NCBI GenBank assembly: GCA_963836525.1 | Contig: CAWIJW010000005.1 | Coordinates: 25,669 to 89,668, forward strand | DNA length: 64,000 nt | DNA from: an uncultured Acidobacteriaceae bacterium | GTDB taxonomy: Bacteria; Acidobacteriota; Terriglobia; Terriglobales; Acidobacteriaceae | Reading direction: 5' to 3' | Shown: one piece after another, positions 8,299 to 30,960 of the stretch | Layout: each line of letters begins with the position of its first letter | Numbering within the stretch: position 1 is the stretch's first letter | The notes under the pieces: generated by a model | Told to the model about the DNA's origin: nothing | The model's database searches: none | The model's input: only the letters and a program-made list of their open reading frames with translations | Position numbers and translations under genes: made by a program

Positions 8299-8390
8299 TG
8301 GTTTGACGGAAGCGGTCACTATTCTAGCCGTTGCCTGCGAGTCCGGCTAGAGCAACCCATTTGTTTTCAACATATACGATCAGAGAGAAT

Positions 8391-8407
8391 TTGGCGCGGC
8401 ACGTGCT
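8391..8407 (+). promoter_or_regulatory. Sigma54 (-24/-12) promoter of the adaptor-ATPase-permease operon
   Basis: TTGGCGCGGCACGTGCT has GG (8393-94), N10, GC (8405-06), close to the consensus TGGCAC-N5-TTGCW. It is intergenic, 14 nt before ATG 8421, and the locus encodes an NtrC-type activator. Confidence 0.65.
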
Positions 8408-8420: not shown

Positions 8421-9689
8421 ATGGATATTGCACGCCCTGATCTATTGCGAAAGAGGAAGCGCCGGATCATGATCTGGTCCGGTGCCGCGGTGGTAGTTGT
8501 TGCGGCACTTGCAGTAGCCGTCCTCCACCTGAAACCAGCCGCACCCGATGTGGATCGCTCCACCATCTGGACGGACACGGTCAAGCGCGGCCCGCTTGTC
8601 CGCCAAGTGCGTGGCTCCACCGGCACCCTGGTTCCGCGCGAAGACTCGATCGAGCTAATCCCCGCGCAGACCGACGCAACAGTCGTTCGCATACGCGTCT
8701 TGCCCGGCGCCCAGGTGACTCCGAATACGATCATCATGGATCTGGCCGATCCGCAACTCCAGCAGGAAGTGCTCAACGCGCAGTTGGCGCTCAAGGCCGC
8801 ACAAGCGGACTACAAGAGTCTCCAGGCCACGCTAGAAAGCACGTTGATGGACAAAAAGACCGCGGCCGCGCAGGTGAATGCCGACTATACGCAGGACCAG
8901 TTGCAGGCGCAGACCGACAAGGCGCTTTACGACCTCGGGGTCATCTCCGGCCTCGCCTATCAGAAGTCAAGGAGCACGGCCGACCAGTTGACCACGCAGC
9001 ACCAGCTGAGCCAGGAGCAGCTCGATGTGAACCAGAAGGCCATCGAGATCCAGCTGGCTTCACAGAAGACCAAAATCGACCAGGCCCAGGCGTTGCTCGA
9101 TCTCTATCAGAGGCAGGCGCAAGCGCTTCAGGTCAGGTCCAGTATTTCGGGCGCGCTGGCGCCGCTGGCGACTCCCGTGCAGGTGGGCGAGCATGTGACA
9201 GCGGGAACATCGGTGGCCGAGGTGATCCAGCGCGACAAACTCAAAGCCGCACTCCAGATCGCCGAGACGCAGGCCCGTGACATTCAAATCGGTCAGCCAG
9301 CCTCAATCGACACGCATAACGGCATTATTCCCGGCCACGTCACCAGAATCGATCCATCGGTCGTGAACGGAACGCGCACGGTTGACGTAGATCTAGATGG
9401 GCCGCTGCCGCCGGGAGCGGTGCCGCAATTAAGCGTGGATGGAACCATCGATCTGGAGCGGATGAGCGATGTGCTTTACGTCGGCCGGCCGGCCCTGGGC
9501 AATGAGAACTCCACGCTGAGTCTGTTCAAGCTCGACCCGGAGGGCAAGACTGCGACGCGTGTGCCGGTCAAGGTGGGCCGCGCGTCGGTGAACAACGTTC
9601 AGATACTGGAAGGACTAAAGGAAGGCGACACGGTAATCCTCTCGGATATGTCGCGCTGGGACAACGTGGACCGCATCCACCTGGAATAG
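8421..9689 (+). CDS. Periplasmic adaptor (membrane fusion protein, HlyD/MacA-like)
   Basis: N-terminal basic patch plus TM (RKRKRRIMIWSGAAVVVV), TVKRGPLVRQVRG, lipoyl/hairpin organisation, and C-terminal GLKEGDTVILSD. Confidence 0.9.
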   Translation: MDIARPDLLRKRKRRIMIWSGAAVVVVAALAVAVLHLKPAAPDVDRSTIWTDTVKRGPLVRQVRGSTGTLVPREDSIELIPAQTDATVVRIRVLPGAQVTPNTIIMDLADPQLQQEVLNAQLALKAAQADYKSLQATLESTLMDKKTAAAQVNADYTQDQLQAQTDKALYDLGVISGLAYQKSRSTADQLTTQHQLSQEQLDVNQKAIEIQLASQKTKIDQAQALLDLYQRQAQALQVRSSISGALAPLATPVQVGEHVTAGTSVAEVIQRDKLKAALQIAETQARDIQIGQPASIDTHNGIIPGHVTRIDPSVVNGTRTVDVDLDGPLPPGAVPQLSVDGTIDLERMSDVLYVGRPALGNENSTLSLFKLDPEGKTATRVPVKVGRASVNNVQILEGLKEGDTVILSDMSRWDNVDRIHLE

Positions 9690-9799: not shown

Positions 9800-10522
9800 A
9801 TGGAATCCAACGGTACGTTGATTGAAATCGAGGACCTGACCAAGATCTTCTACACGGACGAAGTGGAGACGCACGCGCTTTCCGGCGTTCACCTGACTAT
9901 CGCGCGCGGTGAGTATGTGGCCATATCCGGCCCCTCGGGTTGCGGCAAGTCCACGCTGCTCTCCATTCTCGGCTTGCTCGACACGCCCACCGCGGGCCGG
10001 TATCTGCTCAACGGCAGTCCGGTCGAGAGCCTGAACTTCGGCGACCGGTCACGCATCCGCAACCAGGAGATCGGCTTCATCTTCCAGAGCTTCAATCTCA
10101 TCGGCGATCTTACAGTCGAGGAGAATGTCGAGCTGCCTCTCACCTATCGCGCAGGCATGCCATCGGCAGAACGCAAGAAGCGTATGAAAGAAGCGCTAGA
10201 GCGCGTCAACATGGCACACCGCATGCGGCACTATCCGGCACAACTGTCCGGAGGCCAGCAGCAGCGCGTCGCCGTGGCCCGCGCCCTGGCCGGTTCGCCG
10301 TCGATTCTGCTTGCCGATGAGCCCACGGGCAACCTGGACTCGAAAAACGGCGAAGCCGTTATGCACTTGCTTGCCGAACTGCATCGGGAAGGCTCGACGA
10401 TCTGCATGGTCACCCATGATCCTCGCTTTGCCAAGCACTCCGAGCGCGAGGTGCATCTGTTCGACGGAAAGGTGGTATCGGAAGATGAGCGCAAGAAGCT
10501 CGAGGCAGAAGCGGAGGCGTAG
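9800..10522 (+). CDS. ABC ATP-binding protein (MacB/LolD-type), ATPase 1
   Basis: Walker A GPSGCGKS, Q-loop FIFQSFNL, signature LSGGQQQRV, Walker B LLADEPTGNLD, H-loop VTHD. Confidence 0.96.
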   Translation: MESNGTLIEIEDLTKIFYTDEVETHALSGVHLTIARGEYVAISGPSGCGKSTLLSILGLLDTPTAGRYLLNGSPVESLNFGDRSRIRNQEIGFIFQSFNLIGDLTVEENVELPLTYRAGMPSAERKKRMKEALERVNMAHRMRHYPAQLSGGQQQRVAVARALAGSPSILLADEPTGNLDSKNGEAVMHLLAELHREGSTICMVTHDPRFAKHSEREVHLFDGKVVSEDERKKLEAEAEA

Positions 10523-12972: not shown

Positions 12973-13002
12973 GAGGAGTCCCGCACGGCAAGGAGACATG
13001 GA

Positions 13003-15492: not shown

Positions 15493-15515
15493 CGCGCTAT
15501 CGAGGAGAAACGAAT

Positions 15516-17999
15516 ATGAACACGCTGCTTCAGGACATTCGCTACTCACTACGCCAGTTGCGCAAGTCGCCTGGGTTCACACTCACTGCCGTGCTGACAC
15601 TGGCCTTTGGCATAGGCACCACCACCGCCATCTTCTCCATCGTCGAGGGTGTTCTAATGCGGCCTTTGCCTTTTCCTGAACCGGACCGGCTAGTGATTTT
15701 GGGAAATATCCCTGAGGGAGTGCCCCTCGACGGAGGCGCCCCTCGTGTCACGGCTCCGGCGGTGGGCATTTATTCGCGTGCGACAAATGTCTTTTCTGCG
15801 ATGGGTGCATACCGACAGGTTGGGTTCGAGCTGTCGGGCCAGGGAGAGCCGGCGGCGATCAGCGCGGCACGAATGAACGCAACGGTCTTCCAGGTGCTCG
15901 GCGTCGCACCCCTGATGGGGCGAACTTTCACGCAGCGCGAGGATGACGAGAGCCAACAAGTCGCGGTGATCAGCTACCAGATGTGGCGCGACCGCTTCTC
16001 CGGTGATGCGAACGTTCTGGGGAAAAAGCTTCTGCTCGACCGCAGAACCTACGAGATCATCGGCGTCATGCCGCGCACATTTGAGTTCCCGCTGGTTCCC
16101 GGGCAGCTGAACCGCAGTGAGCTGTGGGTTCCCATGAGCTTTACACAAGGCGAGCTTGTGAACCAGTCCGGAAGCTGGAACTACTTTTTGCTGGGGCGGT
16201 TGAAGCCGGATGTGACGGCGGAACAGGCCCGGCAGAATATGGAGCCGGCGGGGCCGGAGATCGTGCAGCGCCTGCCCTCGGTCATCCAATCGATGCGCAT
16301 TCACGCGCGGGTAGAGAGCCTGATGGACGCGACCGTGGCCCAGGCCAGGCCGCTCGTGCGCATGCTCTTTCTCGCCGTGGCCGTGGTGCTCATCATTGCC
16401 TGCGCCAACCTTGCGGCTCTGCTGTTGGTTCGGGTCATTCGCCGCCGTCACGAAACCGCGGTGCGAATGGCTATGGGGGCAAGCACGACGAGGATACTCT
16501 ACGAGAACCTCCTCGAGTCTCTTTCCTTCAGCCTGGCGGGCGGCCTGGGCGGCCTCGTTCTGGCATGGGCCGCTCTCCGCGTCGGCACTCGCTTTCTTCC
16601 CGAGACTCTGCCTCGTGTCAGCGCCATCTCGCTTGATTACGGGGTTGTCGGGTTCGCATTTCTGCTGGTCTTGCTTACGGGCCTGATTTGCGGCGCCCTT
16701 CCGGCGGTTGCCGCGGCGCGGACCAGCGTGAATGACCACCTGAAGGAAGGCGGCCGAACGGATACGCCGGCCGGCAGCCAGGCTCGGCTGCGGTCGGTTC
16801 TCGTGGTTTGTGAACTCGCAGCAGCGCTTGTGCTTCTCACCGGGGCCGGCCTGCTGCTGCGCAGCTTTGAAAAGCTCCGCGAGGTCGATCTCGGCTTCAG
16901 CACGGACCACACGATGACGGCGTTCTTCGGGCTGCCCGGCCGGCAATACTCCAGCCAGGCCGCGGTGGACGTCTTCGACCAGACACTGTTGCAGAAGCTG
17001 AGAGCATTGCCGGGTGTCGAGGCGGTCGGGGTCACTACAGCACTGCCCGGCGGAGGCGCGGATAATACGACATTCGTTCCGGAGGGCTACGTTCCGCCTT
17101 CGGGAGCCGGCCTCAATCTGGCCTGGAACGGCCGGGTCATCGGCGACTACTTCCAGGCCGCGGGCATTCCTCTGCTGCGGGGGCGCTACTTCCGCGACGC
17201 CGACGCGGCCAGTGCTCCGTTGGTGGTAATCGTGAACCGCACTCTGGCCGAAAAGTACTGGCCCAATCAGGACCCAATCGGAAAGCGGCTCTACATCGGC
17301 GTGGCAGGGTCGCCGATGCCCTGGCAAACGGTTGTCGGAGAGGTGGGCGACATCAAGCAAAGCGGTGCCGATCAAGACACGCTGCCTCAGTTCTACCAGC
17401 CGGCGTCCCAGCTCAAACCCTCCATCGGCAAGTTTGCCCCTCCCAACATGCTGTACGGCAATTACGGCACGGTTGTGTTGCGCGGCACGTTGCCTCCGCA
17501 GCAGATGGCTGTGGGCCTTCGCTCTGTCGTCCACTCGCTTGACCCGCAGTTGCCGCTCATTCATGTTGCAACCATGGAGCAACTGGTCGAGGAGGGTCAG
17601 GGATCGCGCCGTTTCAACACCGTGCTGATCTCGACGTTCGCCGGCGCGGCCGCGCTGCTGGCGCTGCTCGGCATCTACAGCGTCATTGCATTCGCCACAG
17701 CGCAGCGCACCCACGAGCTCGCCATTCGCATGGCGCTGGGCAGTCGACGATCAAGCATCGTACGTCTCATCCTGGTATCCGGCGGCAGGTTGGGTCTTGC
17801 CGGCTGTGTTCTGGGCGGGGTCGGAGCCTTCTTCGCCACACGACTGCTGCGCTCGATGCTCTTTCAGGTTGATGCGCTGGACCCGGCAGTGATCGCGCTC
17901 GCGATGCTTTCCATTCTGGCGTTGGCGCTGGCGGCGTCGCTTGTTCCCGCCCGCCGCGCCGCATCCATCGAACCCATGCAGGCCCTGAGAACCGAGTAA
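15516..17999 (+). CDS. ADOP-type duplicated ABC permease, copy 4
   Basis: DIRYSLRQLRKSPGFT, IIACANLAAL, RTHELAIRMALG, PARRAASIEPMQALRTE; 827 aa. Confidence 0.95.
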   Translation: MNTLLQDIRYSLRQLRKSPGFTLTAVLTLAFGIGTTTAIFSIVEGVLMRPLPFPEPDRLVILGNIPEGVPLDGGAPRVTAPAVGIYSRATNVFSAMGAYRQVGFELSGQGEPAAISAARMNATVFQVLGVAPLMGRTFTQREDDESQQVAVISYQMWRDRFSGDANVLGKKLLLDRRTYEIIGVMPRTFEFPLVPGQLNRSELWVPMSFTQGELVNQSGSWNYFLLGRLKPDVTAEQARQNMEPAGPEIVQRLPSVIQSMRIHARVESLMDATVAQARPLVRMLFLAVAVVLIIACANLAALLLVRVIRRRHETAVRMAMGASTTRILYENLLESLSFSLAGGLGGLVLAWAALRVGTRFLPETLPRVSAISLDYGVVGFAFLLVLLTGLICGALPAVAAARTSVNDHLKEGGRTDTPAGSQARLRSVLVVCELAAALVLLTGAGLLLRSFEKLREVDLGFSTDHTMTAFFGLPGRQYSSQAAVDVFDQTLLQKLRALPGVEAVGVTTALPGGGADNTTFVPEGYVPPSGAGLNLAWNGRVIGDYFQAAGIPLLRGRYFRDADAASAPLVVIVNRTLAEKYWPNQDPIGKRLYIGVAGSPMPWQTVVGEVGDIKQSGADQDTLPQFYQPASQLKPSIGKFAPPNMLYGNYGTVVLRGTLPPQQMAVGLRSVVHSLDPQLPLIHVATMEQLVEEGQGSRRFNTVLISTFAGAAALLALLGIYSVIAFATAQRTHELAIRMALGSRRSSIVRLILVSGGRLGLAGCVLGGVGAFFATRLLRSMLFQVDALDPAVIALAMLSILALALAASLVPARRAASIEPMQALRTE

Positions 18000-18033
18000 A
18001 TCACGCCGAAAACCAAAACGGAGAAGATACGTG

Positions 18034-20595
18034 ATGAACAATCTGTGGCACGACCTTCGATACGCGCTGCGCCAGTTGCGCAAATCGCCGGGCTTCACGC
18101 TGACTGTTGATGCTCACACTTGCACTGGGCATCGGCGCCAACACGGCCATCTTTACACTGATTCACGGCATTCTGCTGCGCTCGTTGCCGGTCGCCGATT
18201 CCGCACAACTTTACCGCATCGGCGACACCGACGATTGCTGCGTCGAAGGCGGCTTTCCCGGCGACGCATCGACCACCGGCGACTTCTCGATCTTCTCCTT
18301 CGATCTGTATCAGTACCTCAAGAATTCCGCGCCGGAGTTCGAACAACTGGCGGCGGCTCAGGCTGGGCAGTGGCCATGGAGCGTGCGCCGCGGCGATGCT
18401 CTACCCAAACCGCTGAACGGCGAATTCGTCTCGGGAAATTACTTTTCCACGCTGGGCATCGGCGCGTATGCGGGTCGCGTGTTCAGTGACAACGACGACA
18501 TGGCGACCGCGTCGCCGGCGGTTGTTCTGAGTTATCAGGCGTGGCAGGGCGAATACGCCTCCGATCCATCGATCGTGCGCTCGACAATCTATATCCAGGC
18601 GCGGCCCTTTACGGTGATCGGCATTGCGCCGCCGGGCTTCTTCGGCGACCGCGTCAGACCCAACCCCCCCGACTTCTGGATTCCGATCCAGACCGAGCCG
18701 TACATCCGCGGCAACAACTCTATCCTGCATCATCCCGACTCACACTGGCTCTATCCCGTCGGCAGAGTGCGACCCGGGACGAACGTCGCCGCGTTGCAGG
18801 CCAAGCTCTCCGGCGCTGTGCGCCAGTGGCTCTATTCGCGTCCGTCGATGACCTCGAGATGGCGGAGCGGCAATCATTCCCAAGATGCACGTCGTGCTTT
18901 CACCTGCCGGTGGCGGCATCCAGAACCTGCAGCAGCAGACGGGCAAGGGCCTCAAGTTGCTCATGATCCTCTCGCCTGGTCGTGCTGCTCATCGCCTGCG
19001 CAAACATCGCCAACCTGATGCTGGCGCGCGCCACGACGCACCGCTCTGAGATCGCCGTGCGCGTGGCCCTCGGCGCTGGACGCCGCCGCGTCATCCGGCA
19101 GGTTCTTACCGAAAGCGTGCTGTTGAGCTTATCGGCGGTTTTACAGGCCTGGCGGTTGCCTATGCCGGCTCTCATACCATTCTCGCTCTCGCATTCCCCG
19201 ACGCGCGAAATCTGCCGATCGAAGCCAGCCCATCGTTGCCGGTTCTCAGCTTTGCGTTTGTTGTCTCGCTGGTCACGGGAATTCTTGTTCGGCACCGGCC
19301 CGGCGTGGCTGTCGTCGCATGCGCAGCCAGCGGAGGCTCTGCGCGGCATCAACCGCTCCACGCGTGACCGCTCTTCTCTGCCGCAGAAATCGCTGGTCGT
19401 CTTCCAGGCCGCGTTGTCAGTCGTTCTGCTGGCCGCGGCAATCCTGATGACCAAGTCGCTTGCTCATCTCGAAGACCAGGACTTTGGCGTCGCTACGGCC
19501 AATCGCTATGTGTTGCACTTCGACCCGGCCGGCGCCGGCTACACAACGGACCGGCTGCCCGAACTCTACCGCCAGATCGAAGACCGGTTCTCCGCGCTGC
19601 CCGGCGTGACCAGCATGAGCATGGCCATGTACAGCCCGCTCGAAGGCGACAACTGGGGCGAGTGCGTCATCCAGCAAGGTCATCCCGCTCCGCGCCCCGG
19701 CGATCACTGCGGCTCTACGTGGGATCGCGTCAGCACCCGCTTTCTTGATTCCATCGGCGTGCCCATTGTGCGTGGACGCAACTTTACCGAGCAGGACACG
19801 GCCACATCGCCGCCGGTCGCTATGGTCAATGAGACCTTCGTGAAACGATTCTTCCCCAACCAGGACCCCATCGGCCAGCACTTCGGCATCGATTTGCCGC
19901 AATACTCGGGAAGCTTTGAGATCGTCGGCGTCTTCCGCGACTTTAAGATGAACGTCCCGACGCATCCGGTTCGCCCTGTCTTTCTGCGTCCGCTTTCGCA
20001 ACCATTTGCGGGTTACAAGGAGCCGGAGATGATCTCCACCGAGAGCCAATCCATGATGATGAACGCACTGATCCTCGCGTTCGACGGTCCGCAGCAAAAT
20101 GTGGACGCGTTGGTTCGTCATACGTTGGCCGGCATCGATCGCAGCCTAACGGTGATGGATCTTCGCTCGTTTGGCGCACAGGTGGCCGGCAACTTCATTC
20201 AGGATCGCCTGATTGCACGGCTCAGCAGCCTCTTCGGCATGCTGGCGCTCATTCTTGCCTCGGTAGGACTTTATGGCGTTATGTCTTACTTCGTTGCCCG
20301 GCGCACCAGCGAGATCGGCATCCGCATGGCTCTGGGCGCAAGCCGAGCCAGCGTGGTGAACATGGTGATGCGCGGCGCGCTCTGGCAAATCCTCATCGGC
20401 CTTGTGCTGGGGATTCCCGCATCGCTCTATGCCGGCTACTTGATGAAGGTCATGCTCTACGGCGTGGACTGTTATGACCCGATGGCGCTGACTGGCGCGC
20501 CGCTGATGCTTGTCCTTTGCGCCGCTGCGGCCGGCTTCATCCCCGCCCGCCGCGCGGCTTCCATCGAACCCATGCAGGCGCTGCGCACCGAATAA
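18034..20595 (+). pseudogene. ADOP-type duplicated ABC permease, copy 5, interrupted by five single-base indels (pseudogene or sequencing errors)
   Basis: Start MNNLWHDLRYALRQLRKSPGFT and end PARRAASIEPMQALRTE are both intact. Permease-like reading switches frame at ~18107 (+1), ~18857 (+1), ~18975 (+1), ~19129 (-1) and ~19285 (+1). Confidence 0.88.
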
Positions 20596-20614
20596 TCCCC
20601 GAGGAGGAACTCGA

Positions 20615-23044
20615 ATGAACGCGCTCTTTCACGATCTCCGAACCGCGCTGCGCCAGTTGCGCCGCGCACCTGGGTTCACCAGCATGGCCATCTTGGTCAT
20701 GGCACTAGGGATCGGCGCCAACGTGGCGCTGTTCACCGTGGTGCGCAGTGTGCTGCTCAAGCCGCTGCCCTTCGAAGACCCGACCCGGTTGTTGATGCTT
20801 TATGAACACCTTACGGTGAGCGGCAGCGAATTCGCATACAACGGCGTAGCGGGGGGCGTTTATTCCGAGTGGAACAGTCAGAACCGGAGCTTCAGCAGCA
20901 TGGCTCTCATGCAGGATGCCCAGGTAGGTCTTTCAGGATCGGGCGGAGATCTGCCGGAGACGCTCAACTCTGAGTTAGTTTCATGGAACCTGTTCCCGAC
21001 GCTGGGCGTGCAGCCGGCACTTGGACGCGGCTTTACTGCGGCAGACGACAACCTTGCTTCGAGTGGCACAGCGGTGCTGAGCTGGAGCTTGTGGAAGCGC
21101 CGATTCGGAGGCGACCCGGCCATCCTGAATCGGACCATCTATGTTGATGGCAAACCTTACGCCGTCATCGGCATCATGCCAGCGTGGTTCGAGTTTCCTC
21201 AATCCACTACGCAGCTTTGGATTCCTGTCTATCACTACGACCCCGAAAGAGTGACCTCGGCGCTCGACAATCACGTGTTCCATGTGGTCGGACGGATGAA
21301 GCCTGGGATCACCGAGGCACGGGCGACGGCCGACTTGACCGTCATTACGCGCCAACTGCATAACGCCCATCTCGACGATCCCTTCGTCTCCGCCGCAGCC
21401 AACAGCCGTCCCCTACTGGAGCACCTAGTGGGCAATATCGAGCGTCCGCTCTATGTGCTGCTCGCAGCCACAGCGTGCCTGCTGCTGATTGCCTGCCTGA
21501 ACGTAGCCAATCTGCTTGTGGCCCGGGCGGCTGCGCGGCGCAAAGAACTCGCGATTCGCACCGCATTGGGCGGCGGCCGATTGCGCTTATTGCGCGAGCA
21601 TCTGATGGAAAGTTTTCTCCTCTCGGCCGCGGGCGGCGCAGGAGGCCTCGTGCTGGCCTATGGCGCCATTTCATGGCTTGTCGACTTGCGCCAGGACATG
21701 GCGCGCTCCGGCTCCATCCATGTCGACGCCGTCGTGGCGGCCTTCACTGTGGGCGTAGTCGCGCTCTGCGCGCTCTTTTCGGGGCTGATCTCCGCCCTCA
21801 ACGCCCACGACAAGCATGTCCTCGCTGCGCTGCATGAGTCTTCAAAATCGCACAGTTCAGGCAAGCAGCGAGCCCGTCTGCGCAAGGTCCTGCTTGCCGC
21901 CGAAGTCGGGTTGACCGTCGTGCTGCTCGTTGGGGCGAGCCTGCTGCTCAAAAGCTACCAGCGGCTTCGAGCCACGAACATCGGCTGCGCCACCGACAAT
22001 GTCCTCACCATGCGCATCGCCTTGCCCGGCGCCCGCTACAAGACGCCGGGCCCTGCGCCTGCCAATTTCTTTCAGACGCTTCTGGAGCGGGTACGGGCGC
22101 TGCCGGGCGTGGAGGCCGCCGGTATTGTGACCGCAGTTCCCGGCCAGGGATACTGGGGCGATGTATCATTCAGCATCGTTGAGCATCCTCCCCTGACCCA
22201 AGGGAAGGGCCTTTTCGCCATTTACCGTAGGGCCGATCCTGGCTACTTCGCGGCCATGGGCATTCCCATCCTGCGCGGACATACGTTCGACGATGGACAA
22301 ATACTAGACCACGCAAATGAGGTGATGATCAGCGGATCGTTCGCCCGGAAATTCTTCCCGGACGAGGATCCGATCGGCAAACACCTGCATCCCAGCGACC
22401 TGAATCGAGACGCCATCATTGTTGGCGTGGTAGGCGATACGCGCTACGCCGTTGGCGAGCAGCCCGCGCCAATGCAGTACTATCCGCTCTTCGCGGGAGA
22501 TCAGAACATCGCCACCCTCGCAGTTCGCTCTGCAGGCGACGTGGAACAGTTAGCGCTGCCTGTGCAACGCGTGATTCAAAGTATGGACCGCGACTTGCCC
22601 GTCTCCGAAATTCTCACCATGAATCAACTGATTGGCAAATCCACTCTCGATCAGAGTTTCGACACAACACTGCTTTCCAGCTTCGCAGTGCTCTCACTTG
22701 TGTTGGCCGCTGTCGGGCTTTTCGGCGTTCTATCTTACGTTGCCGCGCAGCGCACAAACGAGATCGGCATTCGCATCGCGCTGGGGGCGCAGCGGGAGCA
22801 GGTGCTCTGCCTGATGCTTGCAGACGGGCTGCGGCCGGCGTTCATCGGATTGGCGTTGGGACTCGCTGCCAGCGCAGCATCAGTTCGCCAGATGCGCACC
22901 ATGCTCTACGAAACGCAGCCGCTCGATCCGGCGGTCTTCACTGCAGTGGCAGGGACTTTGCTGTTGGTGGCGGCTCTGGCCTGCCTGGCGCCAGCGTGGC
23001 GCGCCTCGCACCTCGAACCCATGCAGGCGCTCAGAACGGAGTAG
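20615..23044 (+). CDS. ADOP-type duplicated ABC permease, copy 6
   Basis: Start MNALFHDLRTALRQLRRAPGFT after SD GAGGAGG; LLIACLNVANL, RTNEIGIRIALGA, EPMQALRTE. Confidence 0.95.
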   Translation: MNALFHDLRTALRQLRRAPGFTSMAILVMALGIGANVALFTVVRSVLLKPLPFEDPTRLLMLYEHLTVSGSEFAYNGVAGGVYSEWNSQNRSFSSMALMQDAQVGLSGSGGDLPETLNSELVSWNLFPTLGVQPALGRGFTAADDNLASSGTAVLSWSLWKRRFGGDPAILNRTIYVDGKPYAVIGIMPAWFEFPQSTTQLWIPVYHYDPERVTSALDNHVFHVVGRMKPGITEARATADLTVITRQLHNAHLDDPFVSAAANSRPLLEHLVGNIERPLYVLLAATACLLLIACLNVANLLVARAAARRKELAIRTALGGGRLRLLREHLMESFLLSAAGGAGGLVLAYGAISWLVDLRQDMARSGSIHVDAVVAAFTVGVVALCALFSGLISALNAHDKHVLAALHESSKSHSSGKQRARLRKVLLAAEVGLTVVLLVGASLLLKSYQRLRATNIGCATDNVLTMRIALPGARYKTPGPAPANFFQTLLERVRALPGVEAAGIVTAVPGQGYWGDVSFSIVEHPPLTQGKGLFAIYRRADPGYFAAMGIPILRGHTFDDGQILDHANEVMISGSFARKFFPDEDPIGKHLHPSDLNRDAIIVGVVGDTRYAVGEQPAPMQYYPLFAGDQNIATLAVRSAGDVEQLALPVQRVIQSMDRDLPVSEILTMNQLIGKSTLDQSFDTTLLSSFAVLSLVLAAVGLFGVLSYVAAQRTNEIGIRIALGAQREQVLCLMLADGLRPAFIGLALGLAASAASVRQMRTMLYETQPLDPAVFTAVAGTLLLVAALACLAPAWRASHLEPMQALRTE

Positions 23045-23075
23045 TCATTCTGATCTCTAACGGAGAAGAAACGCG

Positions 23076-25526
23076 ATGAATCGACTATGGTACGACCTTC
23101 GCTACGCGCTGCGCCAACTGCGCAAGTCGCCCGGCTTTGCGCTGATCGTGGTGCTGATGCTGGCTCTCGGCATTGGCGCCAATACCGCTGTCTTCAGCGT
23201 GATGAATGCAATCCTGATGCAATTGCTGCCCGTGAACCGTCCCGAGGGCCTTTCCTATGTGCGTATGGCCAACGGCCAGGGCCAGCCGCCGGGCGCGGGC
23301 AATACCGGAGACTCAAATACCTCCTTTTCCGAGCCGGTCTTCGAGGCGTTGCGTCAGCACGGCGACGTCTTTGAAGAACTTATTGGCTATGTACCACTCA
23401 GCTTCACAGGCAGCGTAGCAGTGCGCCACGGTGAGCTTCCAGAAGAAGCCGAGGGTGAAGAGGTCAGCGGCAACTTCTTTTCCGGGCTGGGCGTACCGAT
23501 CGAGCGCGGCCGCGGCTTTGCGCTGGCAGACGAGAAGAACCATGCGCCGCTGGTTGTGCTGAGCTACGATTTCTGGACGCGAAGCTATGCCCGCGATCCC
23601 ACAGTGCTGGGGCACACGCTCTACGTCAAGGGCGTGCCCATGACAATTATCGGTATTGCGGCCCGCGAGTTTAAGGGCATAGAACCAGCCACCTCAACCG
23701 ATTTCTGGATTCCGTTGCAAAGCCGGCCCGAACTGAATGCTTGGGGTGCGCCCGCCCAGTTTAATTCTCTCTACGGCACGCCCAAGTGGTGGGCCCTGCG
23801 CATGATGGCACGATTGCGGCCGGGCGTGACGCCGATGCAAGCGCAACAGGCGCTTAGCGGGGCCCTGGGCGAGGCGGTGAACCGAACGGTCGGTTCGGTG
23901 GATCCGAAGCAATGGAAGCCGCTCCTGGATTTCGCACCGGCCCGCGGTGTTGGCGGGTACAACGAGGAATACCGCACGTCTGTGCTGATTCTTATGGGAC
24001 TTGTCGGATTGGTGTTGCTGATAGCCTGCACCAATGTGGCCATGATGGTGCAGGCGCGTAACACGGTCCGCAGGCGCGAATTCAGTGTGCGTCTGGCTAT
24101 CGGCGCGGGCCGCGTCGCAATCTTTCGCCACTTGTTGTTGGAAAGCCTGCTATTGGTGGGCGCTGGGGCTTCGGTAGGCTGGTTGTTCGCGGTCTCAGCC
24201 ACACGCATGCTGGCGGCTTGGTCGGGCATTGAAACCGGTCTCAGCCCGGATCGAACGGTTTTGGTTTTTACGCTGCTGCTCTCTGCGCTGGCCGCCCTGG
24301 TTTTCGGCCTCGTTCCCCTGCGGAGCGTGATGAATGCCCCTGTCGCGGACGTCTTGCGGTCCGCATCCTTAAACGCCACTACGGCGCAAAGCCGTGCACT
24401 CGGTGGTCGCATCGTGCTTGCTGCGCAGATGGTGATGTGTCTGGTGTTGCTTATGGCCGCCAGCCTGCTGCTGCGCACGCTGCGCAACTACGCCACGCAG
24501 GATCTGGGCATGCAGGCCGACGGGCTCCTGGTCTTCGGCATCACGCCGCTGGGACAGACCGATACGCACGCTTTCTACCGCGCCCTGCTTGACCGCCTTC
24601 GCCAGATGCCCGGCGTCGAGTCTGTCTCGATGGCACATGATCGTCCCGGCTCAGGATGGTCCGCCAACGGCGGCACCTTCATGCTCGATGGCGTCAGGGA
24701 GCGAGGCAAGTTGCGTTCGAACGATGTGGGATCAGGATTCTTCACCACCATGGGCATCCCGCTTCTTGCGGGCCGCGATATTGCTGATTCCGACGGGGCG
24801 GGCACGCCAAAGGTTGCGGTGGTGAACGAAACGTTTGTGAAGCGGTATCTTGCCAATACCAATCCGCTGGGACATGTGCTTCTCGGCTGCAGCATTGTCG
24901 GCGTGGCACGCGACAGCAAATATACGTCGGTGGATGAGGGGCCCACGCCCATCGCCTATTTTGCGCGCATGCAATCCAATCCGGTCGGAATCATGCATAT
25001 CGAAATGCGCACCCGCGGCGACGCCCTGGCGATGTTGCCCGCGGTGCGCAAAATGATGGCCGCTGCTTATCCCGACATTCCCCTCGAAAAACCGATGACG
25101 CAGCGGGCGCAGTTCGAAGAATCCTATGAATCTCAACGTATGTTCGCTGCCATGGGCGGATTCTTCGGTGTGCTGGCGGCCCTGCTCGTCGCCACCGGTT
25201 TATACGGCACGTATTCGTTCCGCGTAAGCCGCCGCACCACCGAGATTGGCGTGCGCATGGCGCTGGGCGCAAGCCGCAGTCAGGTGTTGGCCATGGTCTT
25301 TTGCGAAAGTCTGTGGGTGCTGATCGCGGGACTTGCCGCCGGCATACCGCTCACGCTTCTCGCTGTTCGTTCGCTCAAGTCGATGCTCTACATGATGTCG
25401 CCGCTCGATCCGGTGAGCTTAGTGCTGGCGATTGCGGCGATGATCGTTGTGTCCGGCTGTGCAGTTCTGCTGCCGGCGCGCCGGGCAGCTTCCATCGAAC
25501 CTATGCAGGCATTGAGAACCGAATAA
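23076..25526 (+). CDS. ADOP-type duplicated ABC permease, copy 7
   Basis: DLRYALRQLRKSPGF, LLIACTNVA, RTTEIGVRMALGA, PARRAASIEPMQALRTE; 816 aa. Confidence 0.95.
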   Translation: MNRLWYDLRYALRQLRKSPGFALIVVLMLALGIGANTAVFSVMNAILMQLLPVNRPEGLSYVRMANGQGQPPGAGNTGDSNTSFSEPVFEALRQHGDVFEELIGYVPLSFTGSVAVRHGELPEEAEGEEVSGNFFSGLGVPIERGRGFALADEKNHAPLVVLSYDFWTRSYARDPTVLGHTLYVKGVPMTIIGIAAREFKGIEPATSTDFWIPLQSRPELNAWGAPAQFNSLYGTPKWWALRMMARLRPGVTPMQAQQALSGALGEAVNRTVGSVDPKQWKPLLDFAPARGVGGYNEEYRTSVLILMGLVGLVLLIACTNVAMMVQARNTVRRREFSVRLAIGAGRVAIFRHLLLESLLLVGAGASVGWLFAVSATRMLAAWSGIETGLSPDRTVLVFTLLLSALAALVFGLVPLRSVMNAPVADVLRSASLNATTAQSRALGGRIVLAAQMVMCLVLLMAASLLLRTLRNYATQDLGMQADGLLVFGITPLGQTDTHAFYRALLDRLRQMPGVESVSMAHDRPGSGWSANGGTFMLDGVRERGKLRSNDVGSGFFTTMGIPLLAGRDIADSDGAGTPKVAVVNETFVKRYLANTNPLGHVLLGCSIVGVARDSKYTSVDEGPTPIAYFARMQSNPVGIMHIEMRTRGDALAMLPAVRKMMAAAYPDIPLEKPMTQRAQFEESYESQRMFAAMGGFFGVLAALLVATGLYGTYSFRVSRRTTEIGVRMALGASRSQVLAMVFCESLWVLIAGLAAGIPLTLLAVRSLKSMLYMMSPLDPVSLVLAIAAMIVVSGCAVLLPARRAASIEPMQALRTE

Positions 25527-25571: not shown

Positions 25572-26276
25572 ATGATCGAACTGAAAAACGTCGAACGAAG
25601 TTACAAGAACGGCTTCACGGAGACCTGGGTGCTGCGCCGGATCGGGCTCAGCATCCGCGAAGGTGAGTTTGTCACCGTCATGGGACCGTCGGGAGCGGGG
25701 AAGTCGTCGCTCCTGAACGTGCTGGCGCTCCTCGATGACGGATGGAAGGGCGAGTACTGGTTCGCCGAAACCGCCGTCCATACGCTCAACCGCAAGCAGC
25801 GCGCCGACCTGGCCCGCCAACGCATCGGAATGGTCTTTCAAAGCTATCACCTCCTCGACGATCTTACGGTCGCCGAGAATATTGACCTGCCGCTTTCTTA
25901 CAAGAATCTGCCCGCAAGGGAACGGCAAGGCATGGTCGCCGACATTCTGGACCGATTCCAGATTGTGGCCAAGAAGGACCTGTTTCCCTCGCAGCTCTCC
26001 GGCGGGCAGCAGCAATTGGTGGGCATTGCGCGCGCCGTGGTGCACGCGCCATCACTGCTGCTGGCCGACGAGCCCACCGGCAACCTGCACTCCACGCAGG
26101 GCCGCGAGATCATGGACCTCTTCTGCGAACTCAACCGTCAAGGCACGACCATCGTGCAGGTGACGCACTCTGAAGAGAACGCGCGCTACAGCCGGCGCAT
26201 TGTGGAGTTGCGCGACGGGTGGATCACGCGCGATGAAACCCTTGCAGCAAAGCCGATGGAGGTTGGCTCCAAGTGA
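25572..26276 (+). CDS. ABC ATP-binding protein (MacB/LolD-type), ATPase 2
   Basis: Walker A GPSGAGKS, MVFQSYHL, LSGGQQQLV, LLADEPTGNLH, VTHS. Confidence 0.95.
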   Translation: MIELKNVERSYKNGFTETWVLRRIGLSIREGEFVTVMGPSGAGKSSLLNVLALLDDGWKGEYWFAETAVHTLNRKQRADLARQRIGMVFQSYHLLDDLTVAENIDLPLSYKNLPARERQGMVADILDRFQIVAKKDLFPSQLSGGQQQLVGIARAVVHAPSLLLADEPTGNLHSTQGREIMDLFCELNRQGTTIVQVTHSEENARYSRRIVELRDGWITRDETLAAKPMEVGSK

Positions 26277-28273
26277 ACCGTTCCGATATCCGTCTTCATC
26301 CGTCAAGTCCGGCACGTCGGATCCAGGCCGTTGCCGCCATTCTGCTTCTGCAAGCGAACCTGGCGCTGGCCGTCGAACCATCCGGACCTGCCGCGCCTTC
26401 GATTCCGTTAGCTCCATCGGCCATGCAAAATGCGCCGGTCGCGCCGGCGCCTGTGCAGGCACATCAGGACAACATTCCCTTCGAGCAACTGCAGCACGCG
26501 TCGCGCAATCCATTCGACGCCTATCGCGGAAAGGCTGTTCCTCCACCCAGCCTGGCAAATTCAGTGCGCCTCGATTCTTTGATTCGCGACGGCAAGCTGT
26601 ATCTAAGGCTGCAGGATGCCATCGATTTGGCGCTTGAGAACAACCTTGACCTGGTGATTGCGCGTTACAACCTGCCCATTGCGCAGATGGATGTATTGCG
26701 CACGGCGGCCGGCGGATCGGTGCGCGGCGTGAATACGGGCGTGGTGTCGGGCACTCCCGGAGGCGCAGGCGGCCTCTTTGCGGGCGGCGCGGGAGCGGGT
26801 GCTGGCGGCACCTCAGGCGGTGCGGGCGGAGCGGGCGCAGGTGCGTCGGGCCTTGTGCAATCCACACTGGGCACGGGCACTGCGGTTTCCACATACGATC
26901 CGTACATCAGCGCGAGGACTTACGTGGATCACACCACCCAGCTTTTGCCCAACCGCATCCTCTACGGCGTTCCGGTGATTCACCAGAACACGTTCCTGGG
27001 CAATTTCTCCTACTCGCAGGCGTTCCCCACCGGAGGCGGCATCCAGGTCGCTTGGAATAACAATCGCCAAACCACCAACAGTCCCAACAATACGCTCAAT
27101 CCCCAGCTCAACTCCTATTTTGAGTTCTACGCGGATCAGCAGTTGCTGGCCGGTTTTGGCCTGGGACCAAACCTGCGGTTCCTGCGCATTGCCAAAACCA
27201 ACCAGATAGTCTCCGATATCGCCTTCCGTGCCCAGCTCATTGCCACCGTGACCCAGATTTGCGACCTGTACTGGGATCTGGTGAACGCCTATGATAACGA
27301 GCAAGTGGGCGAGCGCTCGGTGGCCTTTGCCACTGAGACTCTGAACACCGCCCGCAAGCAGCTCGAGCTCCAGGCAATTCCGGAGATGGACGTACTGAAA
27401 GCGGAGGCGGATTTGGCCACCCGCCAGCAGGACTTGACCGTAGCCCGCACGAATCTTGAGCTGCAAGAGCTGTACATGAAGAACGCCATTACCCGCTCGC
27501 TCGATGACCCTGTGTTGCAGGACATGCCGGTTGTTCCTGTCGACCACATCAGCGCCGAAGTCGAGCCGAACATGGAGCCGGTGCAGGACATGATTGCCTA
27601 TGCGCTCAAGAATCGCACCGAGCTTGAGGAGTCGAGCCTCGTTCTTGAGAACAGCGAACTCAGCCGCAAGACCGCCCGCAACGCTCTGCTGCCCGCGCTT
27701 ACGGTTTACGGCTTCTATGCCGGCACAGGGTACGCTGGCACGCCCAACCCCTTGAACAGCTCCGGCGCAAACGTGCCTGCGGACTTCGGCGGCGCGGTAG
27801 ACAATGCGTTCAATTATTCTTCGCCTGAATATCAAGTGGGCCTTCAATTGACCATTCCGCTGCGCAACCGAATCGCCAAGGCTGACCAGTACCGGACCGA
27901 GCTCGAATACCGGCAGTCGCAGGTCTATCTTGAGGAGTTGAAGAAGCGCATCCGCATCGAGGTTCGGAATGCGCGCTTTGCGCTGGAGCAGGGCGCCAGC
28001 CGCGTAGATGCGGCTCGCCAAGCCCGCGACCTTGCCCAGAAGACGCTCGATATTATGCAACAGGAGCAAAAGCTTGGGGCAGGGTCAAACCAGCAGACCC
28101 TTTCCGCCGAGCACGACTTGGCACTGGCCGAGTCTGCTTTGGTAGCCGCCGAAACCGACTATGAAAAGGCGCGCATCGAAGTGCGGCGCGCTACCGGCTC
28201 GGTCCTTGAGAACTATGGCATCTCGATCGCCGATGCAAAGAGCGGCGTAGTGGAGGCAGACCATTCCCGTTAA
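26273..28273 (+). CDS. TolC-family outer membrane factor
   Basis: Signal-like N-terminus, LRLQDAIDLALENNLDL, beta-strand segments, two coiled-coil repeats (LYWDLV..A, AESALVAAETDY). Overlaps ATPase 2 by GTGA. Confidence 0.88.
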   Translation: MNRSDIRLHPSSPARRIQAVAAILLLQANLALAVEPSGPAAPSIPLAPSAMQNAPVAPAPVQAHQDNIPFEQLQHASRNPFDAYRGKAVPPPSLANSVRLDSLIRDGKLYLRLQDAIDLALENNLDLVIARYNLPIAQMDVLRTAAGGSVRGVNTGVVSGTPGGAGGLFAGGAGAGAGGTSGGAGGAGAGASGLVQSTLGTGTAVSTYDPYISARTYVDHTTQLLPNRILYGVPVIHQNTFLGNFSYSQAFPTGGGIQVAWNNNRQTTNSPNNTLNPQLNSYFEFYADQQLLAGFGLGPNLRFLRIAKTNQIVSDIAFRAQLIATVTQICDLYWDLVNAYDNEQVGERSVAFATETLNTARKQLELQAIPEMDVLKAEADLATRQQDLTVARTNLELQELYMKNAITRSLDDPVLQDMPVVPVDHISAEVEPNMEPVQDMIAYALKNRTELEESSLVLENSELSRKTARNALLPALTVYGFYAGTGYAGTPNPLNSSGANVPADFGGAVDNAFNYSSPEYQVGLQLTIPLRNRIAKADQYRTELEYRQSQVYLEELKKRIRIEVRNARFALEQGASRVDAARQARDLAQKTLDIMQQEQKLGAGSNQQTLSAEHDLALAESALVAAETDYEKARIEVRRATGSVLENYGISIADAKSGVVEADHSR

Positions 28274-29630
28274 GCAAGAAAGAATTCGCGTTCTGGTTGC
28301 CGACGATCAGCCCCACATTCTGGAAGCCGTGGAGCTGCTGCTGTCTCCGCAGGGCATCGACGTCGATTGCGTGCGATCGCCGCACTTGCTGATGGAAGCG
28401 CTCGGCCAGCGCGACTACGATGTGCTGCTCATCGACCTGAATTACACCCGTGATACCACCTCCGGCCAGGAGGGTCTGGATCTGCTGGCGCGCGTCCAGG
28501 AGTACGACTCACGCTTGCCGGTGATCGTCATGACCGCCTGGGGCAATATCGGGCTGGCTGTCGAATCCATCAAGCGCGGCGCTCGCGACTTTGTCCAGAA
28601 GCCGTGGGAGAACGAGCGCCTCCTCTCACTCATTCGCGTTCATGCGGAGCTGCGCCAGGCACTGCGCCGCGCACGCCAGCTTGAGCTCGAAAACCGCCTG
28701 CTGCTTGCCGAAGGCATGCCCGAGTTCATCGCTCAGGCGCCCGCGATGCAGCCGGTGCTCGAGCTCATTGCGCAGGTCGGCCCCTCCGATGCCAACGTGC
28801 TCGTCACAGGCGAGCATGGCACCGGCAAGGAGATCGTCGCCAGACTGCTCCACGCCGCTTCGCCTCGCGCACGCATGCCGCTGGTGACGGTGAATGCCGG
28901 CGGACTGCCGGAGGGAACGTTTGAGAGCGAAATCTTCGGACATGTGAAGGGCGCCTTTACTGACGCGCGCACCGACCGCATTGGCCGTTTCGAGCTGGCC
29001 AACGGCGGAACGCTCTTTCTTGACGAAATCGCTAACGTCCCATTGCGCCAGCAGGCCAAGCTGTTGCGCGTGCTTGAGGCAGGCGAACTGGAGCGCGTGG
29101 GCTCTTCGCAAACCCGGCATGTGGACGTGCGGCTTTTGTGCGCCACCAACGCACAGTTAGGCGAAGAGGTCAAAGCCGGCAACTTCCGCGAAGATCTGCT
29201 CTTCCGCATCAACACCGTCGAGATTCACCTACCTGCGTTACGTGACAGGCGCGAAGATATTCCGCTGCTTGCTCAGCACTTCCTGCATCGCTGTTGCAGC
29301 CGCTATCGCAAGCGAATCAGCGGTTTTTCGCCATCGGCTATCCAGCACTTGATGCGTTATGCCTGGCCGGGCAACGTGCGCGAGTTGGAGCACGCCGTGG
29401 AGCGCGCTGTTCTGTTGTGCCATGGCGACGAGGTAGGTCCGCCCGACCTCGCCATCACGACAGCGCGACAGGCGCCGCAGTCCTTCGAAAGCATGAGCGT
29501 CGATGAGGTCGAAGCTCTTCTCATCCGCAAGGTTCTTCGCCGCTGCAACGACAACATCACTCAGGCGGCTGAGGCGCTCGGTCTGAGCCGCGCAGCGCTT
29601 TACCGGCGCATTGAAAAATATGGCCTATGA
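28263..29630 (+). CDS. Sigma54-dependent response regulator (NtrC/AtoC family); start codon uncertain
   Basis: Receiver RVLVADDQ...LLIDLN...TAWG...KPW; AAA+ GEHGTGKE, GAFTDA, GGTLFLDEI, WPGNVREL; Fis-type HTH NITQAAEALGLSRAALYRR. The receiver domain extends upstream of the ORF-track GTG at 28329. Confidence 0.92.
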   Translation: MPVKQERIRVLVADDQPHILEAVELLLSPQGIDVDCVRSPHLLMEALGQRDYDVLLIDLNYTRDTTSGQEGLDLLARVQEYDSRLPVIVMTAWGNIGLAVESIKRGARDFVQKPWENERLLSLIRVHAELRQALRRARQLELENRLLLAEGMPEFIAQAPAMQPVLELIAQVGPSDANVLVTGEHGTGKEIVARLLHAASPRARMPLVTVNAGGLPEGTFESEIFGHVKGAFTDARTDRIGRFELANGGTLFLDEIANVPLRQQAKLLRVLEAGELERVGSSQTRHVDVRLLCATNAQLGEEVKAGNFREDLLFRINTVEIHLPALRDRREDIPLLAQHFLHRCCSRYRKRISGFSPSAIQHLMRYAWPGNVRELEHAVERAVLLCHGDEVGPPDLAITTARQAPQSFESMSVDEVEALLIRKVLRRCNDNITQAAEALGLSRAALYRRIEKYGL

Positions 29631-30960
29631 GAGCGGCGTGCGCGGGCACAAGCGATCGGCAATCCGCCGGGCGTGGTGGCATTCCCTGCTGCTCACGCTT
29701 CCCGGGCTGATTCTCGCGTCCGTCTTTGCGATCCAGAGCGGAATAAGTCTCTTCTCTGCGGTTCTCCTCGCCGGCGGCTTGCTGATCTACTTTGCGATTG
29801 TGGCCGCTTCTCTGTTGGACGGGATTGTTCGCCCACTGCAAACGCTCTCGAACGTGGTGGCCTCGCTGCGCGAGGGCGACACATCATTTCGCGCGCGAGG
29901 AGCTGGCGTGACTGACGCGGTCGGTGAGCTTGCAGCGGAGGTCAACGCCCTAGCCGACTTGCTGCAGAAGCAGAGAGTACGCTCGCTTGAATCCACGGTT
30001 CTGTTGGCTCGCATGTTTGAGGTCATGCATACGCCACTATTCGCGTTCGATCGCGAGAACTTGCTGCAAACTGTCAACCCGGCGGGCCTGAGACTGCTGG
30101 CCTTGCCATACTCCCGATGCATCGGCCATAGCGCGCGTGACCTCAGGTTGCTGAACCTTCTCGAAGCACCGGATCATACAATCCATGAATTCGGTTCAGG
30201 GTCTACGCGTTGGCTGCTGCGCAAGGCCGCTTTTCGTCAGGATGGCGTGCCCCACACGCTGCTCCTGCTAGCCGATGTCAGCCTGCCGCTCCGGGAAGAG
30301 GAGCAGATCGCATGGAAGCGCCTGATCCGGGTTCTTGGGCACGAATTGTCCAATTCGCTGGCGCCCATCAAGTCCATTGCCGGCAGCCTGTTGGCCCGCG
30401 TGGGCAGCCTGCCCGATGATGCACAGCACGATTTTCGGCGCGGTTTGAGTGTTGTCGAGAGCCGCGCCGACGCCCTGCACCGCTTTGTGCAATCGTACCG
30501 GCAACTTGCGCAGTTGCCTCCGCCGCAGTTCAAAGCAGTTCATCTCGCGCCGTTGCTGGAGCGCGTCGTGCTTTTGGAACAGCGCATTCACGTGGAACTC
30601 GTTCCGGGGCCCCAGGCCAGCCTGAATGCGGATTCGGATCAATTGGAACAGATGCTGATCAATCTGCTGGCCAACGCCGCTGACGCCTCCCTGGCGAACG
30701 GGGCAAAGCCTGTGCGCGTGACGTGGGAAACGAGCCCCTCCCGCGTGGAGATCATCATTGAAGACCGTGGCCTGGGGATCGCCAATCCAGACAACCTGTT
30801 TGTTCCGTTCTATACCACCAAGACCACGGGAAGCGGTATCGGCCTTGCGTTAGCTCAACAGATTGCCCGCAGTCATGGTGGCGAGATCTCGCTGCAAAAT
30901 CGCGACGATGGCGAAGGGGCCCGCGCCACGGTCAGCCTGCCCCTGAAACTGACGGCCTGA
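29620..30960 (+). CDS. Sensor histidine kinase (2 TM, HAMP, PAS-like, HisKA, HATPase)
   Basis: Two adjacent hydrophobic segments, then IVRPLQTLSNVV (HAMP), H-box VLGHELSNSL, N-box INLLANA, IEDRGLGI and GSGIGLAL. Overlaps the end of the response regulator gene. Confidence 0.93.
   Translation: MAYESGVRGHKRSAIRRAWWHSLLLTLPGLILASVFAIQSGISLFSAVLLAGGLLIYFAIVAASLLDGIVRPLQTLSNVVASLREGDTSFRARGAGVTDAVGELAAEVNALADLLQKQRVRSLESTVLLARMFEVMHTPLFAFDRENLLQTVNPAGLRLLALPYSRCIGHSARDLRLLNLLEAPDHTIHEFGSGSTRWLLRKAAFRQDGVPHTLLLLADVSLPLREEEQIAWKRLIRVLGHELSNSLAPIKSIAGSLLARVGSLPDDAQHDFRRGLSVVESRADALHRFVQSYRQLAQLPPPQFKAVHLAPLLERVVLLEQRIHVELVPGPQASLNADSDQLEQMLINLLANAADASLANGAKPVRVTWETSPSRVEIIIEDRGLGIANPDNLFVPFYTTKTTGSGIGLALAQQIARSHGGEISLQNRDDGEGARATVSLPLKLTA

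Follow-up and report, generated by a model that had tools for sequence, protein, structure and literature searches.

The 64,000-nucleotide stretch of DNA analysed here (the window) comes from an uncultured Acidobacteriaceae bacterium and contains a long operon that runs from a periplasmic adaptor through a first ABC ATPase (ATPase1), six ADOP permeases, a second ABC ATPase (ATPase2) and a TolC-like channel to a sigma-54 activator and, at its end, a histidine kinase. Every gene of the operon could be assigned to one of these kinds (adaptor, ATPase, ADOP, TolC, activator or kinase). The kinase gene, on which this study centres, extends on the plus strand from an ATG at position 29620 to a stop codon at 30958–30960 (29620–30960) and encodes a protein of 446 amino acids. 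The open reading frame (ORF), Pfam and an AlphaFold2 (AF2) model together delineate a transmembrane (TM) hairpin followed by HAMP, PAS, DHp and CA domains. It is present as a single copy in its own genome, where the next-best match reaches only 28% identity. Unless stated otherwise, all features given below lie on the plus strand.

An earlier, sequence-only reading of the window had drawn attention to this gene by quoting the stretch LILASVFAIQSGISLFSAVLL, which we found in the kinase ORF. Kyte–Doolittle hydropathy revealed one uninterrupted hydrophobic block from W19 to L66, whose only dip falls at Q39–S43. The block is preceded by the basic tail RGHKRSAIRR and followed by D67, R71-P72 and the motif PLQTLSN, and these flanking charges fit a hairpin with both its N- and C-terminal ends inside. 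The AF2 model, built from an alignment of 23 orthologues with a mean predicted local distance difference test score (pLDDT) of 78.6, consists in this part of a helix at residues 8–39, a four-residue turn at 40–43 (SGIS) and a second helix at 44–84, with a pLDDT of 87–90. TM1 is thus delimited by hydropathy and model to residues 19–38 (29674–29733) and contains a near-invariant Pro28; the outside loop QSGIS comprises residues 39–43 (29734–29748), of which 40–43 are non-helical; and TM2 comprises residues 44–66 (29749–29817), its helix running unbroken into HAMP. Measured from the last basic residue ahead of TM1 to the Arg ahead of the PLQTL motif, the hairpin spans 54 amino acids in 92 of 102 orthologues (range 51–61), and no loop insertions occurred in the orthologue alignments. 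As judged from these sequences, there is no room for a periplasmic sensor in any of the 102 proteins, and so constant a span suggests that the geometry is under constraint and that the hairpin is more than a loose anchor. In most lineages outside Acidobacteriaceae, the tip of the hairpin (kinase residues ~36–50) additionally carries the motif LLW-x-G-D-[FY]-S-x-K-V-Q-W-T, which is kept in non-Acidobacteriaceae Acidobacteriota, Gemmatimonadota and Verrucomicrobiota (loci L040–L072 and L130–L163).

The cytoplasmic part of the AF2 model comprises a HAMP-like helix-connector-helix unit (residues 67–135), a PAS domain (136–222), a DHp domain (226–297) and a catalytic ATP-binding (CA) domain (305–441). 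Pfam recognized the last of these clearly (HATPase_c, 72.8 bits); HAMP and PAS_8 stayed below their gathering scores of 25 and 21.8, with 19.2 and 17.3 bits, respectively. The HAMP-like unit (29818–30024) is made up of AS1 (67–84), a connector (85–99) with the strongly conserved motif REGDxSxR, and AS2 together with the signalling helix (100–135); T75, N78, D87, S89 and R91 are invariant among orthologues. The PAS domain (30025–30285) adopts a PAS fold with a pLDDT of 81–95, and its invariant residues are F143, L149, N153, R206 and G209. Within the DHp domain (30295–30510), the phospho-accepting His241 lies in GHELSNSLAPIK, and H241, E242 and N245 are invariant, the latter two constituting a phosphatase-type motif. 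The CA domain (30532–30942) has intact N, G1, F and G2 boxes, with N348, N352, D382, G384, G386, F394, F397, G404, G406 and G408 invariant. Because His241, E242, N245 and all four boxes are invariant, we expect the protein to be active as a kinase/phosphatase, and its motifs mark it as a bifunctional enzyme of the NtrB/ZraS class. This assignment is in line with the best sequence match in the PDB, ZraS, which covers kinase residues 225–445 (E = 5e-20). The best structural matches found by Foldseek were the WalK model 9a5d, VicK (4i5s), LOV-kinase chimeras, ThkA and ZraS, all with a HAMP-PAS-DHp-CA or PAS-DHp-CA order. Hydropathy, AF2 and Foldseek therefore agree with the sequence-only reading, which had described two TM segments joined by a few residues and followed by HAMP, PAS-like and kinase domains; its claim that the kinase lacks a periplasmic sensor is likewise borne out, with about four residues outside and a hairpin of almost constant length.

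Directly upstream, and overlapping the kinase start by 11 nt, lies the gene for the activator (28284–29630; start approximate), in which Pfam identified Sigma54_activat (212 bits), Response_reg and HTH_8. The protein has every hallmark of the NtrC family, namely a REC domain with an acceptor aspartate (Asp51), an AAA+ sigma-54 interaction domain and a C-terminal helix-turn-helix. In all ~100 orthologues its contact loop (28950–28967, residues 223–228 here) departs from the canonical GAFTGA and has the sequence GAFTDA; the conserved −24/−12 promoters described below argue that this form is active. The start of the gene is unusual as well. Between an in-frame TAG at 28251 and the first REC strand, RIRVLVADDQ (28281–28310), there is no ATG, GTG or TTG, and the only candidate starts are ATT codons at 28263 and 28284. 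Two relatives (L035 and L089) likewise have no standard activator start, and other relatives in Terracidiphilus, the genus to which the NCBI names of near-identical kinases assign the organism, use ATG. This suggests a non-canonical start or re-initiation past the TolC stop codon (TAA, 28271–28273).

Upstream of the adaptor gene at the head of the operon we located a candidate sigma-54 −24/−12 promoter, TGGCGCGGCACGTGCT (8392–8407), with its GG at 8393–8394 and its GC at 8405–8406. It agrees with the consensus TGGCACG-N4-TTGCW at 10 of the 12 specified positions. Counting sites with at least 9 of 12 positions as equivalent, we found one in the 75 nt that precede the adaptor start at 16 of 23 kinase-bearing loci, compared with 1 of 9 loci that have adaptor and ATPase1 and no kinase or activator. 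Random 75-nt windows from the same loci contained such a site in 1.8% of cases (binomial p = 3e-23). The position is conserved too: in relatives from the same genus and family (L167, L168, L038 and L037), the 16-mer begins 29–31 nt before the adaptor ATG. In genome G279, a 9/12 site has persisted even though the adaptor operon lies apart from the regulator genes. The genome of the window encodes a single copy of rpoN. Together, these comparisons indicate that the kinase–activator pair very probably turns on the pump operon from this sigma-54 promoter, and because the regulator genes end the operon, the pair would also switch on itself. What speaks on the other side is the site's ordinariness within the window, where a scan for TGGCAC-N5-TTGC with up to one mismatch returned 6 matches against 6.9 expected, with no enrichment; taken alone, the 8392 site is statistically unremarkable there, and its support is comparative.

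Several further features of this intergenic region may be recorded. The promoter ends ~14 nt ahead of the adaptor ATG, so the adaptor mRNA, whose start is expected near 8418, would have almost no leader, an uncommon trait among sigma-54 transcripts. A second site, TGGCACGCGTAGTGAA, on the minus strand (8229–8244), faces a seventh ADOP gene that is divergent from the operon (start at 8197 or 8212); its −24 element is perfect, and its −12 element has GA, not GC. Between the two divergent promoters are two inverted repeats, CCACTGT-N10-ACAGTGG (8279–8302) and TCTAGCCG-N13-CGGCTAGA (8323–8351), neither of which recurs anywhere else in the genome. Among the ADOP genes outside the locus, moderate −24/−12 candidates were present at just two of five.

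We then surveyed 401 Acidobacteriota genomes for the kinase and the pump. A clear kinase orthologue, one per genome and 40–71% identical, was present in 136 genomes (134 at E ≤ 1e-72 plus two truncated copies). Kinase and adaptor occurred together in 132 genomes, the kinase alone in 4, the adaptor alone in 34 and neither in 231 (Fisher p = 2e-67); all four kinase-only genomes are fragmented assemblies. In a sample of 20-kb neighbourhoods around the kinase gene, drawn from 40 Acidobacteriota genomes of many families, the activator lay directly upstream of the kinase at 39 of 40 loci, and pump genes (adaptor, MacB-type ATPase or ADOP) shared a gene string with it at 38. The sole locus with a different activator–kinase arrangement (L048, in genome G357) has three other ORFs, together 3.4 kb, between the two genes. 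The constant neighbours of the kinase are the adaptor and ATPase1. Around them, the composition varies: the number of ADOP genes per sampled stretch ranges from 0 to at least 4, and TolC lies inside the operon mainly in Acidobacteriaceae. Beyond the phylum, GTDB representatives carry the kinase at 44–50% identity in Gemmatimonadota, in Verrucomicrobiota and in one metagenome-assembled genome of Methylomirabilota. In all, more than 598 loci matched among the GTDB representatives, and metagenomes yielded 7980 homologues of the kinase. The gene order there is activator-kinase-adaptor-ATPase1-ADOP in Verrucomicrobiota and ADOP-ATPase2-activator-kinase in Gemmatimonadota, and the short Methylomirabilota contig (L163) holds activator and kinase only. 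Pump genes were found at 61 of 80 loci, most of the others stopping at a contig edge. Because the linkage of kinase and pump outlasts gene rearrangement across phyla, there is strong evidence, drawn from gene content and order, that kinase, activator and pump form a functional unit. A cultured organism with the full adaptor-ATPase1-ADOP-ATPase2-TolC-activator-kinase operon is Tunturiibacter lichenicola MP8S11 (L116; NZ_CP132944.1, 2940553–2961854).

The same data bear on the names under which these genes circulate. JGI annotation calls many homologues 'NtrY', and the HAMP-PAS-kinase order is indeed like that of NtrY, for which a multi-TM N-terminal domain is also expected. If the name were apt, the pair could be an NtrY/NtrX-like nitrogen or redox regulator that adjoins the pump by chance. 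The kinase, however, has a two-TM hairpin in place of the multi-TM domain, and the NtrY model is not among its NCBIfam matches listed. Against the NtrX model, with its cut-off of 600, the activator reaches 311 bits, less than against the NtrC, AtoC and ZraR models; and the linkage to pump and sigma-54 promoter holds across phyla. We therefore rejected the NtrY/NtrX naming, and the corresponding reading, near refuted by these results, is very improbable.

The pump itself is assembled from familiar parts. The adaptor (8421–9689) is of the MacA/HlyD type by Pfam HlyD_3 and NCBIfam RND_mfp, has a conserved MDIxRP N-terminus and is 40–80% identical to its orthologues. ATPase1 (9800–10522), the constant companion of the adaptor across phyla, and ATPase2 (25572–26276) are both of the MacB/LolD type by profile matches, and in both the Walker A, signature (LSGGQ in ATPase2), Walker B with its Glu and H-loop motifs are all intact. 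Between them lie six tandem genes for duplicated permeases of the ADOP family (10525–25526), namely 10525–12972, 13003–15492, 15516–17999, 18034–20592, 20612–23044 and 23076–25526. Their make-up according to Pfam is two MacB_PCD and two FtsX domains, and the permeases score 764–855 bits against the NCBIfam model TIGR03434 (cut-off 622.3). The fourth of these genes is in three pieces, 18034–18105, 18110–18844 in another frame and 18976–20592 in the first frame again; its two frameshifts reflect either a pseudogene or assembly errors. The TolC-like outer-membrane channel (26273–28273) matches Pfam OEP with 111.8 bits. The seventh ADOP permease (5780–8197, minus strand; MacB_PCD and FtsX by Pfam) begins with MFSDLKLALRQLRKSPGF. 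The genome holds 12 ADOP genes in total, of which 7 are at the kinase locus.

These results uphold three more statements of the sequence-only reading: that seven FtsX-type permease genes lie at the locus (six on the plus strand and one on the minus strand, one of them with two frameshifts), that the kinase belongs functionally to this pump locus (co-occurrence in 132 of 136 genomes and linkage across phyla), and that its output runs through a sigma-54 activator to a promoter, here 8392–8407, for which comparative genomics provides strong support. How the kinase receives its input is a different question. Because it exposes nothing outside apart from the short turn, the input must be intramembrane or cytoplasmic. 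Sequence and comparison show an NtrB/ZraS-class kinase that is anchored in the inner membrane by its 54-residue hairpin, with ~4 residues facing the periplasm, and that forms with the NtrC-type activator the dedicated switch of the adaptor-ATPase1-ADOP-ATPase2-TolC operon. In the mechanism that we favour, the kinase would read the working state of the pump, so that the transporter serves as co-sensor. Contact could be made through the hairpin tip and HAMP, as between BceS and BceB, and/or through the PAS domain on an ATPase, in the manner of PhoR-PhoU-PstB. Whenever any ADOP permease sitting on the common adaptor/ATPase engine was loaded with substrate, expression of the whole pump set would rise, with the phosphorylated activator driving the 8392–8407 promoter and the circuit amplifying itself. 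That the kinase senses through the pump in such a Bce-like or PhoR-like way is an argument from analogy, which we put forward tentatively as possible though short of probable. Pump-coupled sensing would fit the fixed length of the hairpin, its tip motif, the strongly conserved HAMP connector and the strict co-occurrence with one pump.

A number of observations weigh against it. Adjacency of kinase and pump would be equally expected of an ordinary regulator and its target; contact and signal flow between the two are conjectural. Only about one in two orthologous operons includes ATPase2, and many of the operons have no permease gene in cis. Adaptor and ATPase1 occur without kinase and activator in 34 of the 401 Acidobacteriota genomes (for instance at loci L075–L084), so that the kinase is dispensable for the pump. 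The tip motif has been lost in the window's genus and other Acidobacteriaceae, where the sequence is AIQSGISLF in the present kinase. Finally, conservation within the protein is lowest in the hairpin: the column means are 0.55 in TM1, 0.40 in the loop and 0.43 in TM2, compared with 0.66 in HAMP, 0.65 in PAS, 0.71 in DHp and 0.64 in CA. This contrast between hairpin and PAS suits sensing by the PAS domain at least equally well.

The conservation pattern thus brings up a rival account, in which the hairpin is a mere anchor and the PAS domain binds an intracellular small molecule (a pump substrate or metabolite) or a cofactor, and this binding would be all that determines kinase activity; kinase and activator would then be an ordinary substrate-responsive regulator of the pump. 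In keeping with this, 38 of 106 alignment columns are at least 80% conserved in the PAS domain and only 2 of 48 in the hairpin, the domain is well folded in the AF2 model, and it contains the invariant or near-invariant polar residues N153, D144, R197, R201 and R206. The closest structures are those of PAS-regulated kinases, with NifL also among the closest Foldseek structures alongside VicK, LOV-kinase chimeras and ThkA, and the persistence of the system in this genus shows the tip motif to be dispensable. The absence of any invariant His or Cys in the PAS domain among orthologues, however, makes a heme or LOV-type cofactor unlikely, and a mere anchor would be expected neither to hold to exactly 54 residues in 92 of 102 orthologues nor to share a tip motif across phyla. 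PAS conservation may also reflect signal transmission or protein contact, as with PhoR and PhoU (PMC13577022). On balance, we consider sensing by the PAS domain alone somewhat unlikely.

The membrane part suggests yet another input. Hairpin and HAMP could directly sense membrane-embedded amphipathic compounds or a perturbation of the bilayer or envelope, independently of the pump, as proposed for LiaS/DesK-type kinases. The topology, without an extracytoplasmic domain, would suit such a role, as would the highly conserved HAMP connector REGDxSxR right below the membrane, with D87, S89 and R91 invariant. MacB-type pumps take their substrates from the periplasm or the outer leaflet, and a cue at the level of the membrane would be apt given this uptake route. 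The sequence of the hairpin is, however, poorly conserved overall and its tip motif is lineage-specific; a general stress sensor would leave the strict co-occurrence with one pump unexplained and the conserved PAS domain without a role. Direct membrane sensing is accordingly quite unlikely in our estimation.

Returning to pump-coupled sensing, the permease-free operons help to narrow down the partner. Among them, for example, three loci (L050, L064 and L069) have the order adaptor-ATPase1-ATPase2-activator-kinase and two others (L042 and L054) the order adaptor-ATPase1-activator-kinase, with kinases that are equally conserved. The sequence-only reading had cast the seven permeases as alternative receptors that feed one kinase; because equally conserved kinases serve permease-free operons, this proposal is weakened, the constant partners being adaptor and ATPase1. 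If kinase and pump are coupled, the docking partner is more likely to be a constant part, such as the TM helix of the adaptor, ATPase1 or a conserved ADOP scaffold, than seven individually recognized permeases. Taken further, one sensor-less kinase might dock on an adaptor/ATPase engine that accepts exchangeable ADOP permeases (0 to 7 in the operon, more elsewhere in the genome) and report the workload of that engine, a sigma-54-based equivalent of flux sensing in diderms. Any substrate would then raise the engine together with, here, six or seven permeases, which would make the kinase a many-inputs, one-output sensor of need across Acidobacteriota, Gemmatimonadota and Verrucomicrobiota. We regard this full scheme as unlikely in its entirety.

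The locus matters in either case. ADOP permeases make up one of the largest paralogous families in the phyla that dominate soil, and the literature searched assigns them neither a function nor a regulator; the kinase–activator pair is their only conserved dedicated switch. Inducers of the pair would reveal what the pump exports, and the sigma-54 promoter class is silent without its activator. If sensing does run through the pump, flux sensing would reach beyond Firmicutes and OmpR-type outputs to diderms, tripartite pumps and sigma-54. The literature that we searched yielded no description of ADOP or MacB-type pumps coupled to a sigma-54 two-component system and nothing relevant on intramembrane-sensing kinases with sigma-54, so the remark of the sequence-only reading that such a circuit had not been described holds to that extent.

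Compared with known systems, the closest resemblances are divided among several families. Intramembrane-sensing kinases, as Mascher is said to have defined them in 2006, are small proteins with a short N-terminal two-TM unit and no cytoplasmic input domain. The present kinase has the two-TM unit and departs from the remainder of this definition, with 446 amino acids and both HAMP and PAS. In the Bce modules of Firmicutes, a kinase without an outside domain takes part in transporter-mediated flux sensing of antimicrobial peptides (PMC10314905, PMC11009047). Like them, the locus described here combines two TM helices, a minimal outside loop (4–5 residues) and HAMP with a gene neighbourhood in which the kinase adjoins the FtsX-family ABC transporter that it regulates, and this linkage is conserved. 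Unlike BceS, the kinase has an extra PAS domain (residues 136–222) and an NtrB/ZraS-type DHp, and BceS was absent from both the PDB phmmer matches (E ≤ 1e-3) and the Foldseek top 50. The regulator is an NtrC-type sigma-54 activator where Bce has an OmpR-type protein; the permease is an ADOP protein with 8 TM segments and two MacB periplasmic domains, whereas BceB has 10 TM segments and one large extracellular domain; and the locus adds an adaptor, TolC and up to two different ATPases in a diderm host. With kinase class, PAS domain, NtrC-type regulator, ADOP permeases, adaptor and TolC all differing, we rejected membership in the Bce family. The Bce-like character that the sequence-only reading had raised as possible is not supported in the form put forward: by descent this is no Bce module, since the kinase is of the NtrB/ZraS class with a PAS domain, the regulator is not of the OmpR type and the permeases are not of the BceB type.

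Transporter-dependent signalling as such is plausible, and a precedent for it from a diderm, which that reading had left out, is PhoR. The E. coli protein combines a TM hairpin with a PAS domain and receives its signal from PstSCAB via PhoU and the PAS domain (PMC9239213, PMC13577022). The PhoR-PhoB/PstSCAB-PhoU system of E. coli and Salmonella (PMC9239213, PMC4423584, PMC13577022) resembles ours in having a TM hairpin, no periplasmic domain and a PAS domain ahead of DHp-CA, and PhoR signalling is ABC transporter-dependent and received at the PAS domain. It differs in that the partner of PhoR is an importer that needs PhoU, whereas the operon here encodes an efflux pump and no PhoU-like gene, and in that the regulator of PhoR is of the OmpR type. 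Nor is the kinase a member of the PhoR family, as it scores 52.7 bits against the NCBIfam model TIGR02966 with a cut-off of 334.2; all of its scores against NCBIfam kinase models fall far below the family cut-offs. Its cytoplasmic part is most like WalK and VicK in structure (9a5d and 4i5s; HAMP-PAS-DHp-CA) and most like ZraS and AtoS in sequence (ZraS, E = 5e-20; AtoS model, 116.8 bits), but WalK, ZraS and AtoS each have a sensor domain outside the cytoplasm, and NtrB is a soluble protein.

The pump, for its part, is like MacAB-TolC, a type VII ABC system, in its adaptor, MacB-type ATPase, MacB_PCD/FtsX permease and TolC-like channel. It is unlike that system in its fused double permease (ADOP) without an ATPase domain of its own, its two different ATPases encoded by separate genes, its up to seven permease genes per locus and its built-in sigma-54 two-component regulation. 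Efflux pumps with a two-component regulator of their own are a known kind, of which the present locus, with a kinase that has no sensor domain, is a variant. By analogy with Bce, and for all the differences in its parts, this variant may work on the same principle, the transporter being the sensor.

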